Positions 29,229 to 37,302 of a DNA stretch of 64,000 nucleotides are shown here, piece by piece. Source of the stretch: a virus (Duplodnaviria > Heunggongvirae > Uroviricota > Caudoviricetes). The notes under the pieces are model-generated. The model did no database searches and was not told where the DNA came from. It saw nothing but the letters and a program-made list of their open reading frames with translations. Position 1 is the first letter of the stretch. Each line of letters opens with the position of its first letter. The stretch is taken from the IMG/VR virus record IMGVR_UViG_2645727901_000008; one strand, given 5' to 3'. The translations under genes and the position numbers were made by a program.

Positions 29229-29273
29229 TCCCAACATGGGACTAAAGTGCTTTACATTGTCCCATATTGGGAC
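29229..29273. promoter_or_regulatory. higBA promoter with two palindromic operators (tccca-N3-tggga; gtccca-tat-tgggac)
   Basis: -35 TTTACA (29251) and -10 TACTAT (29274) with a palindrome in the 17-bp spacer. Confidence 0.5.
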
Positions 29274-29303
29274 TACTATACTTTCAGAGAGAAGGAATCT
29301 GTG

Positions 29304-29606
29304 ATGAAAATAATTTCGGTAAAAACACTAAGGGATTTCTGGGCGAAGAATCCCGATGCAGAACAGCCATTAAAGGCATGGGTTGATGAAGCAACAAAGG
29401 CTGACTGGAAAAATCCGGCTGAGATCAAAGAACAGTACCGGACAGCCAGCATCCTTAAAAACAGGCGCGTGGTGTTCAATATTAAGGGAAATGATTACAG
29501 GTTAATTGTCGCAATTGCTTATCAGCGAGGATGGATGTTCGTTAAGTTTATTGGAACACATAAGGAATACGATGCCATTGAAGCGGATACAATAGAACTG
29601 GAGTAA
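29304..29606 (+). CDS. higB: HigB-family toxin (RelE/ParE superfamily)
   Basis: MKIISVKTLRDFWAK...; about 100 aa, upstream of an XRE-HTH antitoxin (toxin-first order); ATG at 29304. Confidence 0.8.
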   Translation: MKIISVKTLRDFWAKNPDAEQPLKAWVDEATKADWKNPAEIKEQYRTASILKNRRVVFNIKGNDYRLIVAIAYQRGWMFVKFIGTHKEYDAIEADTIELE

Positions 29607-29609
29607 ATC

Positions 29610-29969
29610 ATGAACATTAAACCTATCCGTACAGAACAAGATTATGAGGCCGCACTGCGTGCGGTCGAACCGATGTTCGATAACGAACCGGAAATGAACA
29701 CACCGGAAGGCGATTTCTTTGAAGTAATGTGCCTGCTCATTGAAGAGTACGAGAAAAAGCATTACCCAATTGAGCCACCATCACCTATTGAAGCCATTAA
29801 ATTCCGTATGGAACAGCAAGGGCTGACCGTGAAGGATCTGGAACCGGCGATTGGTAAGTCAAATCGAGTTTACGAAGTGCTTAATGGGACACGAAATTTG
29901 ACGTTACCTATGATTCGTCGTTTACATGCCCAGTTTGGTATTCCACTGGAAAGTCTGGTTGGTGTTTAA
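29610..29969 (+). CDS. higA: HigA-family antitoxin (XRE helix-turn-helix)
   Basis: 119 aa; 4-bp gap after higB; C-terminal HTH-like region. Confidence 0.8.
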   Translation: MNIKPIRTEQDYEAALRAVEPMFDNEPEMNTPEGDFFEVMCLLIEEYEKKHYPIEPPSPIEAIKFRMEQQGLTVKDLEPAIGKSNRVYEVLNGTRNLTLPMIRRLHAQFGIPLESLVGV

Positions 29970-30031
29970 GTTTGGCGGTCTGGAGGACCGCTTTTTATCT
30001 AAAATAAAAATTAGAAGGTTTGATAGCTTGT

Positions 30032-30769
30032 ATGGGCAAAAATTCATCAACAGAAAACACATCTACAATTGACTCAATCAAGGGCACAATGGATGAAGCC
30101 ATAAAAGATAAATTATTTAATAAATTATTTGCATATGTGGTGGTTTCATTTTTTGTCGTTAATTGGCAAGAAATACTAATTTTGTTTAAATCTAAATATG
30201 ATATATACACAACACTGTCTATAGTATGGGTAGGGGATAAATATCAAATCCCTTATTTTGGAACCTTCATTGTATCTCCGTTTTTAGCTCACTTTGTGAT
30301 GCCGTTTATATATGGCACTATTGCGTCCATAGTGATGCCTTATATTACTATGCGTATATCAAAACTCACTGGTAGAAATTATGCGCAAATAAGATACATT
30401 GACCATGAATTTGACTCAGAAGAGAAAGCAAGAGTAAAGGCGTTGCTGAGAAACCTAAAGAAAAAAGAGGAAGAGCTTTTAAAATTAGAGGAACAAATAG
30501 AAGGTCAACAAAAAATACTGAATACAATCGAAGAAAAGAAGAGAGAGATTGAGAGTGCCAGAGTGGCTCTGTATCACGGTATAAAAGTAATTGTTGATAT
30601 ATATAAAGCAAAAGATAAAAGGATTTCCACCAAAGAAGATTTTGCCGATTTATTAAAAGCAATTGAAGAAAGTGATTTTTATAAAGACACTGGGTTGTGG
30701 GGTATTAATAAATTAATAGATGACGTGGAGACAATATATGAGTCTCAATCGACATCAAAGGACAAGTAA
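30032..30769 (+). CDS. Membrane protein with C-terminal coiled-coil (candidate abortive-infection/exclusion protein)
   Basis: AT-rich gene; hydrophobic helices followed by a Lys/Glu-rich coiled-coil; ATG at 30032. Confidence 0.55.
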   Translation: MGKNSSTENTSTIDSIKGTMDEAIKDKLFNKLFAYVVVSFFVVNWQEILILFKSKYDIYTTLSIVWVGDKYQIPYFGTFIVSPFLAHFVMPFIYGTIASIVMPYITMRISKLTGRNYAQIRYIDHEFDSEEKARVKALLRNLKKKEEELLKLEEQIEGQQKILNTIEEKKREIESARVALYHGIKVIVDIYKAKDKRISTKEDFADLLKAIEESDFYKDTGLWGINKLIDDVETIYESQSTSKDK

Positions 30770-33354: not shown

Positions 33355-33586
33355 TGCTTTGGCGTTATGACTCCCTACCGCGCTTCGGCTGAAAGTTAAT
33401 CGTCAAAAGAACCTTCAACGGGAGCCGTTAGCGCGATGGATTATGTGCAGTTTGTGATTTCCAAAATAGTGTCAACCACTTTTTGTGGATTTTATTTTTT
33501 GACCGAAATTTGGCCTAAATCATGTTGATGTAGTTAATTGTTTTTATAACATAAAACTTCATTTTGTTTACATGAAGGATGGTGTA

Positions 33587-34195
33587 GTGAAGTTAAGGGT
33601 TTTAGGGGCCGCGCTCGCGGCTATGTTGGGATGCGTATCTGCTAATACTGCCAATGCAACTGCGTTACCTGCACAATTCAGGGCAGGGCAGCAGGTTATG
33701 AATAATGCTGGTGGGGATCATTCACAAGCGGCCATTATGGACTTTTGCAAGAGGGAGGGCATTCCATTACGGCCTGTTGGAACTCAGTTTATTGGTAAAA
33801 CTGACTTTTGCGTTTTTGCATATACAGCATATCTGACGGACAAAGCTATAACAAAAACAGGTTATTCAACCAAAGATACTCTTTCCAGATTAAGTCAGGG
33901 ATGGCAGCAATTCGAAGTGTATCGCCAGCAAGGATTAGGTGAGTTATTGCAACCACTTTTTATGCTTGCGTTGGTGCCCGAGGGGCAGCAATTTTTGGTT
34001 AAAAAGGGAATGCTTCGCCAAAGTGATATTGCCGGGTTCGATAGCATGATGGCTTATGAGCGCAAACTAACCGAGCAGCGAAATAAAAAACCATCTGCTT
34101 CATGTGTGCAAAGTAAAACAGCAGAATACAGTGCAGTAGCCGGGCCTTTAGCCAAACAAATGGCAGAGCAATGGTGTAAAAAATACGGGCAATAA
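33587..34195 (+). CDS. Secreted/periplasmic protein (signal peptide)
   Basis: GTG start at 33587 gives MKLRVLGAALAAMLGCVSANTANA; no known domain. Confidence 0.55.
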   Translation: MKLRVLGAALAAMLGCVSANTANATALPAQFRAGQQVMNNAGGDHSQAAIMDFCKREGIPLRPVGTQFIGKTDFCVFAYTAYLTDKAITKTGYSTKDTLSRLSQGWQQFEVYRQQGLGELLQPLFMLALVPEGQQFLVKKGMLRQSDIAGFDSMMAYERKLTEQRNKKPSASCVQSKTAEYSAVAGPLAKQMAEQWCKKYGQ

Positions 34196-34215
34196 GTTAC
34201 GCAGCGGAGGCAGAA

Positions 34216-34608
34216 TTGAAAAGATTGACTATTGCTTTACTGGCGTCTTTCCCTTTGATCGCGAGCGCCGGAAATTTACAAGTTAAGTGCGGTCGGTTTG
34301 ATATAAAAATCTATCCAGATGCCATATTTCTGAATGGGAATAAGGTTGATAACGTACACCGAAAAACTAAATCTGACGTAATGAGCTATGTGTTCCAGGA
34401 GTATGCGGAGATGGGGGGAACTTACACGCTGTACTCGCTGGATGTTCCTTCTCGCGGTGATATGACATTATCCCATCAATGGCAGAACGCCGATGGCGAA
34501 GCTCTGCGCGAAGTTAAAACAGAAAAATGCGGCACTTTCCATTCTTTTAAAGGGAAAGTGCCAAATGTTAAATCTGTGCTTGAAAAACAGCGCGCAGGTG
34601 ATTTTTAA
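34216..34608 (+). CDS. Secreted protein (signal peptide)
   Basis: MKRLTIALLASFPLIASA signal peptide; 130 aa. Confidence 0.55.
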   Translation: MKRLTIALLASFPLIASAGNLQVKCGRFDIKIYPDAIFLNGNKVDNVHRKTKSDVMSYVFQEYAEMGGTYTLYSLDVPSRGDMTLSHQWQNADGEALREVKTEKCGTFHSFKGKVPNVKSVLEKQRAGDF

Positions 34609-34696
34609 ACTGCGTTAGCACTTTGAACATGGCGACAACACATCTTGGTGGCTGCGTTGTCGCTGTATGTTTTTATAATATAAAGCATTAAAGTTT

Positions 34697-35326
34697 TCAT
34701 TTTTGTCGGATCTTTTCCAGCATATTTAATTCATTATCACTTTCTGCTGCTGAGACGGTTGGCCTCACATTTCCGAAATATTTCCTGTGAGACTCATGAC
34801 TTATGTATTCACCGACAGTTTCATTCTTGAATATACGAATTTGACATATGCGAGATCCAACAATAAGTTCTACAGGGCTATTCCCATGATTAAATAACTC
34901 TAAAGATATACAGCCTCTGTACCCTGGTTGTATCATGGTATTTAATGAAAGACCAAGCCTTGTATAGCTGCTTCTGGACAATACATCAGCGTAGCAATCT
35001 GGTGGCAAACAAACATATTCTAATGTTGTTGCCAGTACCACTTGATTCGGGTAAACAATGAATCTATCCCCAAGATCTCTCCTTGTTTCCTGGAAAAATG
35101 TTCTGATTGGTTGATGAGTATCATTGTTTTTTGATGGAATTAACTCTATTGACGGCTTCCTTGTCATAATAGACACTAAAAAATCGTAACCAAGTCTAAG
35201 GTCTATGGTGAAGTTCCCAATTTGGTTTTTATTTAGAAGAGGTTCAATGAACAACGACTCAGGTTCTTCTGATTCATAATATTGCAGCAATTCAGCTTTG
35301 CTTAGGAGATTCATTGTGCACTCCAT
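34697..35326 (-). CDS. dCTP deaminase (Dcd)/dUTPase-superfamily protein
   Basis: Blocks parallel to E. coli Dcd (IDLRLGYDF; VLATTLEYVCLPPD; SRSSYTRLGLSL; GYRGCISLELFNHGNSPVELIVGSRICQI); AT-rich. Confidence 0.7.
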   Translation of the reverse strand: MECTMNLLSKAELLQYYESEEPESLFIEPLLNKNQIGNFTIDLRLGYDFLVSIMTRKPSIELIPSKNNDTHQPIRTFFQETRRDLGDRFIVYPNQVVLATTLEYVCLPPDCYADVLSRSSYTRLGLSLNTMIQPGYRGCISLELFNHGNSPVELIVGSRICQIRIFKNETVGEYISHESHRKYFGNVRPTVSAAESDNELNMLEKIRQK

Positions 35327-36384
35327 TTTTCAAGAATCATTACGTTTCGAATCGATTTTTCAACCAAATCATTTATAGTTTTTTCTATGGCTTCTTGTGA
35401 CAACCCAGACCATATACCCGTAGGTTTTTCCCATTCAGAGCATAAGTACTGCCAGCTGCTGTTAATAAAAGCATGCATTTCATTGTGGTCGCGAATAACA
35501 AAAGGACGCACATTATCAAAAGCTGATTTCACATCAAGCAAAGGTGTCGGCAATGTCAAACAAGGAGAAATAATCTGCCCACCATTATGTAAGGCTGATA
35601 TCACAGCATTGAACATGCCAACAACTGGATTTTCCACTTTGTTCAAAAAGTCGCTTACAATTTTAACTCTATCTTCTGTGGATGGGTGAGTATAGCTTGC
35701 AGGATGAGAGCCAGCTAATTTGTATAAGAAATCTACCCCACTTTTTCCAATAAATTGGGCACTAAATAGATCTGCAAAATATTCTCTGCAATGATTTATC
35801 CAAATAACATCAGGTAGATTACTCCATTCTGGTCCAGGAAGTGTGCCTTTGTCCTTGGAACGATAGTTAAGACAGGCAAGCTCAGAAATACCTTTGCTAA
35901 TATCAACGAAATGTCCCAATTCGTGATATAAAGGTATAGAGCATAATGGTCGTCTTCTGTACATTTCAGGTAATGAAATCTGAATTAATTCGACATCGAA
36001 TTTGACATTTAAAACTTCGTCAAATAAAGAATACAAATTCTTGTTTACAGACTTAAAATAAAACCCATGCATATCTGGAGATAGGGCTGTGGTTATAAGT
36101 GTTTTTTCACTTATCCATTTTTTACAGGCATCATTTAAGCAATAGACAATCTCGTAGGGAATTTTCTTTGTAGTACTGCCAGTGAAAAAATTAACTGCAT
36201 CGGTGATAAAAAAAGTACAATCCGCAATTATTTTATCAGCAACATTCACATGGTTTTCATAGAGCTTATCCACCGCTTCTTGTAGAACAGCAAGATATTC
36301 ATGCATGTCTTTAGAAAAATAGGGAGATTCTGATATCTCCCTTAGCTTATTTCGAACTAATGTAAGTTGTGTAAATGCAAGCAT
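35311..36384 (-). CDS. HExxH zinc-metallopeptidase-like protein
   Basis: HELGH motif (YHELGHFVD) with downstream Glu (REYFAD); 357 aa; overlaps the downstream Dcd-like gene by 16 nt. Confidence 0.55.
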   Translation of the reverse strand: MLAFTQLTLVRNKLREISESPYFSKDMHEYLAVLQEAVDKLYENHVNVADKIIADCTFFITDAVNFFTGSTTKKIPYEIVYCLNDACKKWISEKTLITTALSPDMHGFYFKSVNKNLYSLFDEVLNVKFDVELIQISLPEMYRRRPLCSIPLYHELGHFVDISKGISELACLNYRSKDKGTLPGPEWSNLPDVIWINHCREYFADLFSAQFIGKSGVDFLYKLAGSHPASYTHPSTEDRVKIVSDFLNKVENPVVGMFNAVISALHNGGQIISPCLTLPTPLLDVKSAFDNVRPFVIRDHNEMHAFINSSWQYLCSEWEKPTGIWSGLSQEAIEKTINDLVEKSIRNVMILEKWSAQ

Positions 36385-36689
36385 TAAATGTACTCTAATA
36401 CATTCCGGGCCATTACGGGTTCTAACATATCTTCGCTAGTTACTTTGGTTAGCACCTGGGCGAGCGCCTTAGTGTGGCGTATCTCTACCGCGAGCGAGAT
36501 GGACTCTCTGTGAGAAGGAATCTGTAATTGATCACCTTTATCTACACTTAAGTTTGAGGCTTCTCTGATCACCTCATAAACCCGTAACTTTAACTGCTGT
36601 GACACTTCTTGTTGAGATGCTATAAGCTGAAGTACAGTCTTGATCAACTTCAAAGAATCAGAAGCTTGCTGAGGAACCGCATAGAGCAT
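36384..36689 (-). CDS. Small hypothetical protein, first gene of the three-gene operon
   Basis: 101-aa ORF ending exactly where the HExxH gene starts. Confidence 0.5.
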   Translation of the reverse strand: MLYAVPQQASDSLKLIKTVLQLIASQQEVSQQLKLRVYEVIREASNLSVDKGDQLQIPSHRESISLAVEIRHTKALAQVLTKVTSEDMLEPVMARNVLEYI

Positions 36690-36826
36690 AACCCCTCCTT
36701 TCCCTTATCTATAACCGCTTTCTTTTTTCTGTGTATGTTAAAAGTAGAAGCGGTTTTTACCTTTTGTAATATATATAGTGTCTAAAACTAACTTTGGCAC
36801 TATATATGGCATGATATCTATGTTTT

Positions 36827-36868
36827 AAAGACACAAAAGCTCTGTTAAAACAGAGCTTTTGTGTCTTT
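36827..36868. repeat. Near-perfect 18-bp inverted repeat (aaagacacaaaagctctg...cagagcttttgtgtcttt)
   Basis: Read directly from sequence; lies about 140 bp upstream of the three-gene operon start. Confidence 0.6.
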
Positions 36869-37014
36869 AACTTGATCATTTTCTCGCTGAAGTGTATGTC
36901 AGGCTTAGCTCATAATCAAGTTGCTTCCAAGCTAAAAATGAGCTAGCTCCCTGAAACACTAAGAGCGGGGTGTTTCATTTATTAGCGTTGGGCCTGACGG
37001 TGTGTAGGTGAATT

Positions 37015-37302
37015 TTAGCTCATTACTCGATAACGACGGGGAATGGAATTCTCCATCAGGCCACGAATTACTCCCGCCTCACGTAGTTCCTCTGTCTCCC
37101 AGTATCTGTTTGTCACCAGATCGAGGCTGGCTATGACCTTGTGCCGGTCATTCGGCATAGCTAATTTTTCTGCTATAACCATCAGTGAAAACTCTTCATC
37201 CAGTAGAATTTGATAGCAGTTTTTTGATAGTTCCACTTCCCTTATGAGACTGAAACGTCGCTGGATTGTGGCAGTAGAGTAAGTGAAATCTATTTTCTTC
37301 AT
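37015..37302 (-). CDS. Hypothetical protein
   Basis: 95-aa ORF downstream of the antirepressor-like gene. Confidence 0.45.
   Translation of the reverse strand: MKKIDFTYSTATIQRRFSLIREVELSKNCYQILLDEEFSLMVIAEKLAMPNDRHKVIASLDLVTNRYWETEELREAGVIRGLMENSIPRRYRVMS

Follow-up and report, generated by a model that had tools for sequence, protein, structure and literature searches.

Several described systems resemble parts of the locus discussed here. Toxin-antitoxin (TA) and defence systems include protease-controlled switches, such as CapP cleaving CapH, and Lon-degraded or adaptor-type antitoxins. The defensive deoxycytidine triphosphate (dCTP) deaminases are single proteins, in which a zinc-dependent deaminase of the cytidine deaminase (CDA) fold is fused to a kinase or P-loop domain (Tal et al., bioRxiv 10.1101/2021.04.26.441389; AvcD, 10.1101/2021.03.31.437871), and AvcD is restrained by a small RNA (10.1101/2021.03.31.437871). 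Bub operons, 31% of which carry CapH and CapP, have targets, a role and a phage phenotype that are stated as not known (Ye et al., 10.1101/2024.11.21.623953; PMC13373217). Here we describe a three-gene locus in a 64,000-nucleotide stretch of viral DNA (Caudoviricetes; IMG/VR record IMGVR_UViG_2645727901_000008), hereafter the window. The trio consists of a small helical protein (gene A), an M48-like zinc metallopeptidase (gene B) and a Dcd-fold, deaminase-like enzyme (gene C), which are inherited together across two bacterial phyla. We put at about even the chance that it is an autonomous, peptidase-gated nucleotide-deaminase conflict or defence module with the general logic proposed further below.

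Gene A (36384..36689; 101 amino acids, aa), gene B (35311..36384; 357 aa) and gene C (34697..35314; 205 aa), all on the minus strand, form a single operon that is coupled in translation and has a probable insulator, a promoter region and a strong ribosome-binding site of its own. The stop codon of A and the start codon of B overlap by 1 nt (TAATG), the stop codon of B overlaps the ATG of C as ATGA, with GGAG 8 nt upstream, and a strong Shine-Dalgarno sequence (AAGGAGG, 36694-36700) precedes A. These overlapping junctions confirm a preliminary description of the window, made from its letters alone, which had placed three coupled minus-strand open reading frames (ORFs) here. That description began C at 35326 (209 aa); given the ATGA overlap with its GGAG, the starts of homologues and the RefSeq annotation of identical plasmids, the start is most likely four codons further in, at 35314 (205 aa, MNLLSK...).

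Gene C encodes a Dcd-fold protein of the dUTPase superfamily, and we refer to its family as the Q-variant subfamily. It matches the Pfam family DCD (PF22769) with 1.3e-30 and 107 bits against a cutoff of 27, and the TIGR02274 dCTP_deam equivalog with 113.3 bits against a cutoff of 92.8. C was aligned to E. coli Dcd (PDB 1XS1), and 54 members of its family were compared position by position. The deaminase residues E138, S111 and R115 (E. coli numbering) and the triphosphate-binding residues R110, S112, K178 and Y179 are invariant in all 54, their equivalents in the window being E143, S119, R123, R118, S120, K182 and Y183 in the numbering of the 209-aa form. Since both sets are invariant, C is read as a dUTPase-fold Dcd-family protein, predicted to be an active nucleotide-triphosphate enzyme under strong constraint. 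It had been described as having the hallmarks of a dCTP deaminase of the Dcd/dUTPase fold, and the fold, the family scores and the deaminase residues agree with this. The enzyme is not, however, canonical: the motif-III residue Asp128 (in I-D-P-G, shared with dUTPases) is replaced by Gln in 53 of the 54 members and by His in the other, the loop residues A124-H125-R126 are deleted in every member, and H121 is replaced by S or N. Because the Asp to Gln change and the loop deletion are family-wide, C as judged from its sequence is not an ordinary Dcd, and its substrate and product we can only infer. There is also a family-specific C-terminal extension of 12 residues with invariant R188, P189, D197 and L203. 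In E. coli Dcd the 120-126 loop rearranges in the dTTP-inhibited state and switches the enzyme off (structures 2J4Q/2J4H), so that the deletion plausibly removes dTTP feedback control of C. Through its remodelled pyrimidine loop, C may also accept the 5-substituted dCTPs (hm-dCTP, m5-dCTP) of phages with modified DNA.

Gene B is predicted to encode a soluble peptidase. Its motifs are H154-E-x-x-H158 (HELGH), E201-x-F-A-D205, T-H233-P-x-x-x-x-R239 and a C-terminal N-D-L-x-E-K-S-I-R-N, and H154, E155, H158, E201, D205, H233, P234 and R239 are invariant in 46 sequences. On these motifs B has a complete and invariant M48-type zinc-peptidase active site, so the gluzincin-like HELGH...E signature that had been pointed out in this gene is borne out, and it can be specified as M48-like. 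PADLOC, NCBIfam and Pfam scans of B gave nothing above threshold; its match to PF01435 (M48) scores 16.1 bits, under the gathering score of 20.3, and covers only residues 198-243, while a precomputed PF01435 or PF07737 match exists for 2 of 120 listed B homologues. A sequence-profile search of the PDB with the B family returned no match, and Foldseek against the PDB returned no significant match and no global structural match among solved structures. The protein is predicted to be all-helical, with an N-terminal three-helix bundle and a distinctive C-terminal helix formed by the N-D-L-x-E-K-S-I-R-N motif, and no TPR or membrane domain was seen in it. As for membership in ImmA/IrrE (M78, CapP-like), B has no PF06114 match, and the M78 proteins of related loci are separate neighbour genes.

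Gene A encodes a small helical protein with a conserved N-terminus, M-L-(Y/A)-A. PADLOC, Pfam and NCBIfam scans found no family match and no DNA-binding domain in it, and an AlphaFold2 model built on a 6-sequence alignment has four helices at low confidence (pLDDT 51), and was not used for fold searches. Wherever the sequence of a proteobacterial locus extends upstream of B, an A homologue is found there, and the Bacteroidota loci have an ORF of 95-107 aa with a related N-terminus at the same position. Aligned with hhalign, the proteobacterial and Bacteroidota A proteins match end to end at an E value of 0.0011 over 98 columns, where a reversed control gives 0.46. A is the fastest-evolving member of the trio.

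The A-B-C arrangement is conserved in ~55 loci of Proteobacteria and Bacteroidota, and this synteny across two phyla shows the three genes to be one unit, as had been proposed. Homologues of B, all unannotated, occur in Dickeya, Proteus, Shewanella, Aeromonas, Methylophilaceae, Nitrosomonas, many Rhizobiales, Rhodobacterales, Geobacter and many Bacteroidota. Gene order and overlapping junctions are identical in six loci inspected by hand, and in a scan of species-representative genomes C lies directly downstream of B in 48 of 50 loci, the two exceptions being a contig end and a marginal relative with 24% identity. The reverse query, from three C-family proteins, found B- and A-like genes preceding each. 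Median identity to the window across 50 loci rises from 24.6% in A through 33.5% in B to 51.9% in C; C is more conserved than B in all 50, and B more than A in 48. In one metagenomic protein (P0335, 631 aa) B and C are fused into a single chain through a ~35-aa linker with both sets of active-site motifs intact, a single case that supports a physical partnership of the two. Of 5,426 complete E. coli genomes, 8 have the trio, on plasmids in every case, and it also occurs on rhizobial megaplasmids and an Emticicia plasmid; a tblastn search of 50,697 phage records found neither the trio nor any relative of B. PHROGs holds near-identical families whose function is not annotated. A, B and C are passed on horizontally as a set in both phyla, mostly in regions of a mobile or defence type. 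Island copies with 88-92% DNA identity and fragmented ORFs occur on two Salmonella sp. plasmids (NZ_MK356557.1 and NZ_MK356558.1), and a truncated B of 243 aa (P0008) occurs in 24 sequences; we considered these as natural knockouts and drew no conclusion from them, as they are unplaceable or resemble assembly indels.

In the window, the trio and its control regions are the only contents of a 2,417-bp AT-rich cargo island (34611..37027, no strand assigned). Its edges were set by blastn against the non-carrier phage-plasmid NZ_CP032875, where homology runs up to 34610 and again from 37028, and which has ~31 bp where the island sits. GC content is 0.34-0.40 over the three genes versus ~0.47-0.54 in both flanks; this contrast and the discrete insertion confirm the AT-rich block reported earlier. 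The backbone, which had been called P1-like, is D6-like, with 95.8% identity to phage D6; D6 is a relative of P1, so the kinship with P1 holds and the element is not P1 proper. The island is present in 12 of 52 related phage-plasmids of E. coli and Salmonella, and the remainder share the flank only. The equivalent site in D6, between a simB-like superimmunity gene and pmgF/ant/icd, holds another small gene, orf80. Given the 12 carriers, orf80 and the discrete insertion, the site is a cargo hotspot, and from the gene content of D6 it sits between superinfection-exclusion and immI functions. In the left flank of the island (33572-34608, plus strand), the single simB-like gene of D6 has two unannotated ORFs (207 and 130 aa) in its place, and in the right flank (37015-37302, minus strand) is a pmgF-like gene of 95 aa, upstream of ant/icd. 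A canonical Dut (PF00692; 52913-53353, minus strand; 38% identical to E. coli Dut) is encoded separately on the backbone, as the preliminary description stated, and could protect the element's own replication by detoxifying dUTP produced by C. The trio had been placed next to higBA, but the pair (29247-29969) is ~4.7 kb away, with tail/baseplate, mat and sim-like genes in between. It belongs to a second AT-rich cargo patch (29247-30769, plus strand; GC 0.32-0.36) with higB (PF09907), a helix-turn-helix (HTH) higA-like gene and an unannotated ORF of 249 aa. Related phage-plasmids carry different RelE/ParE-HigA pairs at this patch and at another site, which indicates several TA or cargo hotspots in these elements.

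A repeat search found a perfect 22-nt inverted repeat upstream of A (36825..36870, no strand assigned), a candidate bidirectional intrinsic terminator or insulator, and the folding of the leader region is strong (z = -7.2). The core of this palindrome, AGCTCTG-N5-6-CAGAGCT, and its T-rich tract are kept in the Dickeya and Aeromonas trio loci, with only the short stem and T-run present in Aeromonas and the long arms absent there. The long arms are an A-tract/T-tract pair, and a near-identical long arm, TAAAGACACAAAAGCTCTGT, lies upstream of A in the window and in a Dickeya chromosomal island (L003:7512-7555), despite the trio proteins of Dickeya and the E. coli phage-plasmid being only 64-82% identical. 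The control region thus appears to move with the module. Probably the palindrome is a bidirectional terminator or insulator (A-tract, stem, T-tract) between pmgF/ant/icd transcription and the trio promoter, and on the simplest reading it shields the trio from pmgF/ant/icd read-through and travels with it. A role as operator was downgraded, since only the short GC stem and T-tract are kept in Aeromonas and the long arms are A-tract/T-tract. The strong palindrome had earlier been taken as a sign of an effector; the perfect repeat exists, but given its partial conservation in Aeromonas it is most simply explained as a terminator or insulator and is not evidence of effector status. Its AAGACAC motif showed no enrichment within the window. 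Closer to A there is a promoter-like region with a second inverted repeat (36771..36828, minus strand). A sigma-70-like match (36828..36799, TTAAAA-18-TATAGT) is not above chance by itself; the arms of the repeat, CTATATGTAGTG...GACACTACATAT (36771-36785/36793-36807), are common to the window, Dickeya and Aeromonas and bracket the promoter-like region, and the repeat could be an operator or leader stem. At the 3' edge of the island, a terminator scan found a hairpin with a T-run (34646..34665, plus strand), which appears terminator-like for the convergent plus-strand gene; the symmetric stem also lies downstream of C. In Flavobacterium salmonis, an unrelated perfect 22-nt inverted repeat (L041:9394-9438) lies ~70 bp upstream of the Bacteroidota A, so that here again the trio has a long palindrome upstream, of a different sequence.

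Within the reading of the trio as a conflict or defence module, it is most likely an abortive-infection-type anti-phage system that the phage-plasmid carries as lysogenic-conversion cargo. The preliminary description had suggested an undescribed candidate defence module that pairs a Dcd-fold with an HExxH protein, and this idea is upheld, and strengthened by the synteny, the contexts of islands, Tn7-like elements, restriction-modification (RM) systems and TA pairs, the B-C fusion and the association with Bub operons. In the proposed mechanism, C would be the effector and, once unleashed, would deaminate dCTP (or a related cytosine nucleotide) to dUTP. The drain of dCTP and the flood of dUTP would arrest or corrupt the replication of an infecting phage, and the deletion in the 120-126 loop, fixed in the family, would remove the normal feedback control of the enzyme. 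We infer this function for C, and the chemical outcome would be the same as that of the CDA-fold defensive dCTP deaminases. B would bind C and gate it by proteolysis, through either activation or continuous restraint, and A may be a diversifying inhibitor, sensor or substrate. In the sub-model that we favour, a phage cue would lead B to cleave either the fast-evolving A, which would be an inhibitor or sensor, or else the C-terminal tail that is peculiar to the family of C.

Several points weigh against a defence role. There is no recognisable sensor domain in the trio, and the poor model of A makes it impossible to assign that protein a fold-based role. C passes the TIGR02274 equivalog cutoff and may have ordinary metabolic activity, the Asp to Gln change and the loop deletion could alter its substrate or chemistry, and the Dut of the host and that of the element would turn dUTP into dUMP and so could blunt uracil toxicity. 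The sole B-C fusion could be an artefact of assembly or of the stop codon, the enrichment of neighbouring genes given below was counted without a matched random-gene control, and the commonest partner, Bub, is itself without a demonstrated anti-phage phenotype (10.1101/2024.11.21.623953; PMC13373217). PADLOC found no match to the trio and so gives no support, though this is consistent with novelty; targeted literature searches found no description of the trio, and both results agree with the earlier remark that a described defence system with this pairing is not known.

The surroundings of the trio bear on the alternative that survives best. The trio adjoins integrases in Dickeya and Rhizobium, is cargo of Tn7-like elements in Dechloromonas and Methylotenera, and stands next to a type I RM-like system in Rhizobium; other loci have TA pairs, a methylase, a transposase or HipA nearby, and the TA genes in question are MazE/PIN, Phd/ParE, VapBC, HicB and HipA. 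Given such neighbourhoods crowded with TA pairs, the trio might be a TA-like addiction or stress module that stabilises the phage-plasmid or island, which we consider unlikely. C would then be a toxin that arrests growth by unbalancing the nucleotide pool, A would be either a labile antitoxin or an adaptor, and B would be the dedicated protease for the turnover of A, or for that of C when A is the adaptor, as in type VI TA systems. A small, fast-evolving first gene followed by a conserved enzyme would fit this, as would carriage on plasmids and islands and the conserved promoter inverted repeats, which suggest autoregulation. However, D6-type elements already have phd-doc, many trios are chromosomal and lie beside RM or Bub systems, and no DNA-binding domain is detectable in A. 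Set beside the type II TA pattern of two genes and a DNA-binding antitoxin, the trio has three genes, a poorly modelled A and conserved promoter inverted repeats. Nor are TA and abortive-infection roles mutually exclusive.

The most frequent neighbours point to another kind of partner. In a bulk Pfam scan of 410 ORFs within 5 kb on either side of 48 loci, the commonest families were ThiF/E1 (22), HTH_3 (18), Multi-ubiquitin (16), Peptidase_M78 (15), Prok-JAB (11), Prok-E2_E (9), DUF6527/BubE (7) and DUF6791 (6), and RES, HEPN, DarA, MADS, nSTAND and RM components were also among them. A per-locus map shows a complete Bub operon (Multi-ubiquitin, ThiF/E1 and DUF6527/BubE) adjacent to the trio in 21 of 53 loci. 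The Bub neighbours are both Type I-like and Type II-like, come from Proteobacteria and Bacteroidota in at least four gene orders, and are usually accompanied by an HTH plus M78 pair resembling CapH/CapP. The Bub-adjacent loci are L009, L011, L024-L033, L035, L036, L042, L044, L046-L049, L051, L053 and L059, with the trio at ~9.7-11.7 kb in most. In the Rhizobiales, A follows BubE on the same strand at a distance of 64-156 bp, and the capH/capP-like genes are divergent; the order capH-capP-A-B-C, divergent from Bub, is that of the Methylophilaceae and of one Mucilaginibacter; several Bacteroidota have A-B-C converging with capP-capH, and these two genes diverge from Bub; and a further arrangement, seen in one locus, has the trio and Bub themselves converging. 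Trio and Bub have stayed adjacent in two phyla despite rearrangement, which favours a functional link between them or common regulation. The CapH/CapP-like neighbours may be regulators of the trio, or may equally belong to the adjacent Bub operons. In Devosia, a gene ~1.3 kb downstream of the trio (L027:12873-13859) matches aGPT-Pplase3 / amino-acid:DNA transferase, which are thymidine hypermodification enzymes; DefensePredictor lists this domain among its predicted, unvalidated defence domains. At locus L065, where B appears split or partly uncalled, the genes directly downstream of the trio (L065:5604-6919, minus strand) encode a short ThiF-like protein of 269 aa and another with a faint match to Pch2_N, possibly a further conflict system.

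This association can be read in two ways, both of which we rank below the TA-like module. In the first, which is doubtful, the trio would be the missing output of Bub pathways: conjugation of the ubiquitin-like protein (Ubl) to A, B or C, or a DNA-damage or phage cue shared through CapH/CapP, would unleash an M48-gated, feedback-blind deaminase that poisons the deoxynucleoside triphosphate (dNTP) pool, and the stand-alone copies, the island in the window among them, would be a self-sufficient minimal version. In the second, more doubtful again, the trio would be an accessory arm of Bub pathways, as effector, target or regulator, its activity would need Bub conjugation, and stand-alone copies would be orphaned or depend on a host pathway. 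The frequency and variety of the Bub-adjacent loci and the tight same-strand arrangement in the Rhizobiales speak for such an arm, as does the fact that the Bub papers give the targets and function of Bub as not known. On the other hand, Bub is missing beside the trio in at least 30 of the 53 loci, those of the window, Aeromonas and Rhizobium phaseoli among them, and local profiles found no Bub, CapH or CapP genes in the window. Since over half of the loci are without Bub, we regard the trio as autonomous. The Bub papers, in which 544 operons were inspected by hand, make no mention of a deaminase, of the trio or of its association with Bub, and independent systems co-localised under shared CapH/CapP control would give the same picture.

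A role in auxiliary nucleotide metabolism, in which C would work alongside the Dut of the element and add a dCTP-to-dUTP step that supplies dTTP synthesis in lytic growth (the preliminary description had offered a dCTP-to-dUMP version), is very improbable: C does pass the dCTP deaminase equivalog threshold, the element does encode Dut, and a PHROG annotated as dCTP deaminase (1663) exists in phages, but B has no relative in the phage records searched, the island is cargo in only 12 of the 52 related phage-plasmids, C is always linked to the peptidase and the small protein and also occurs on bacterial chromosomes, Tn7-like elements and megaplasmids, and its non-canonical active-site changes are fixed.

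If the trio is indeed a defence system, then poisoning of the dNTP pool by dCTP deamination would have evolved twice, on unrelated folds, bacterial immunity would gain a form of control gated by a protease, as well as an M48-like peptidase of new architecture, and phage-plasmids would have a further lysogenic-conversion trait. That trio and Bub lie side by side again and again, in several gene orders and in both phyla, gives a concrete lead, which can be tested, on the targets and function of Bub. The family-fixed replacement of Asp by Gln, along with the loop deletion, makes C a natural Dcd variant that could reveal how this fold encodes dTTP feedback and substrate choice. As the module is compact (2 kb) and found in E. 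coli, it is immediately tractable.

How the trio compares with known systems can be followed protein by protein. Housekeeping Dcd (the E. coli homotrimer, 1XS1) and C have the same fold and family; the catalytic Glu138, Ser111 and Arg115 align, and so do the phosphate motif (R-S-S) and the lid residues K-Y at the C-terminus; identity, however, is only ~25-30%, and C differs by the Gln for Asp128, the 3-residue loop deletion and the extra conserved 12-residue C-terminal helix. Whereas housekeeping Dcd is a core single gene, C is accessory and mobile and always paired with A and B, and in the 8 of 5,426 E. coli genomes that have it, it is plasmid-borne and flanked by both. B differs from M48 peptidases such as BepA/YfgC (6SAR), Geobacter Q74D82 (3C37), HtpX, Ste24 and Oma1 in scoring under the Pfam gathering threshold and having no global structural match. 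Protease-controlled switches would have a common logic with the proposed trio, in that a dedicated or recruited protease frees a toxic effector or de-represses a system, but the protease of the trio lies inside the effector operon and belongs to another peptidase family. Bub operons and the trio are both sparse, mobile and island-borne, with CapH/CapP-type HTH and M78 neighbours; the trio, in contrast, has no homologue of Ubl, E1, E2 or BubE, and B is M48-like rather than JAB or M78. The 'dUTPase' candidate of DefensePredictor, which is unvalidated, was rejected as an instance of the trio, as its architecture (kinase, dUTPase, aGPT-Pplase) is different. With the defensive dCTP deaminases, the trio would have in common the outcome, a phage-triggered conversion of dCTP to deoxyuridine nucleotides that starves phage DNA synthesis. 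C, however, has an unrelated, metal-independent dUTPase fold, there are three genes including a peptidase, and PADLOC finds no match, so that the likeness is convergence at most and not membership. Defence by manipulation of dNTPs and protease-controlled toxic effectors are thus already known, and what the trio adds is the fold, the tripartite architecture, the M48-like partner and the association with Bub.

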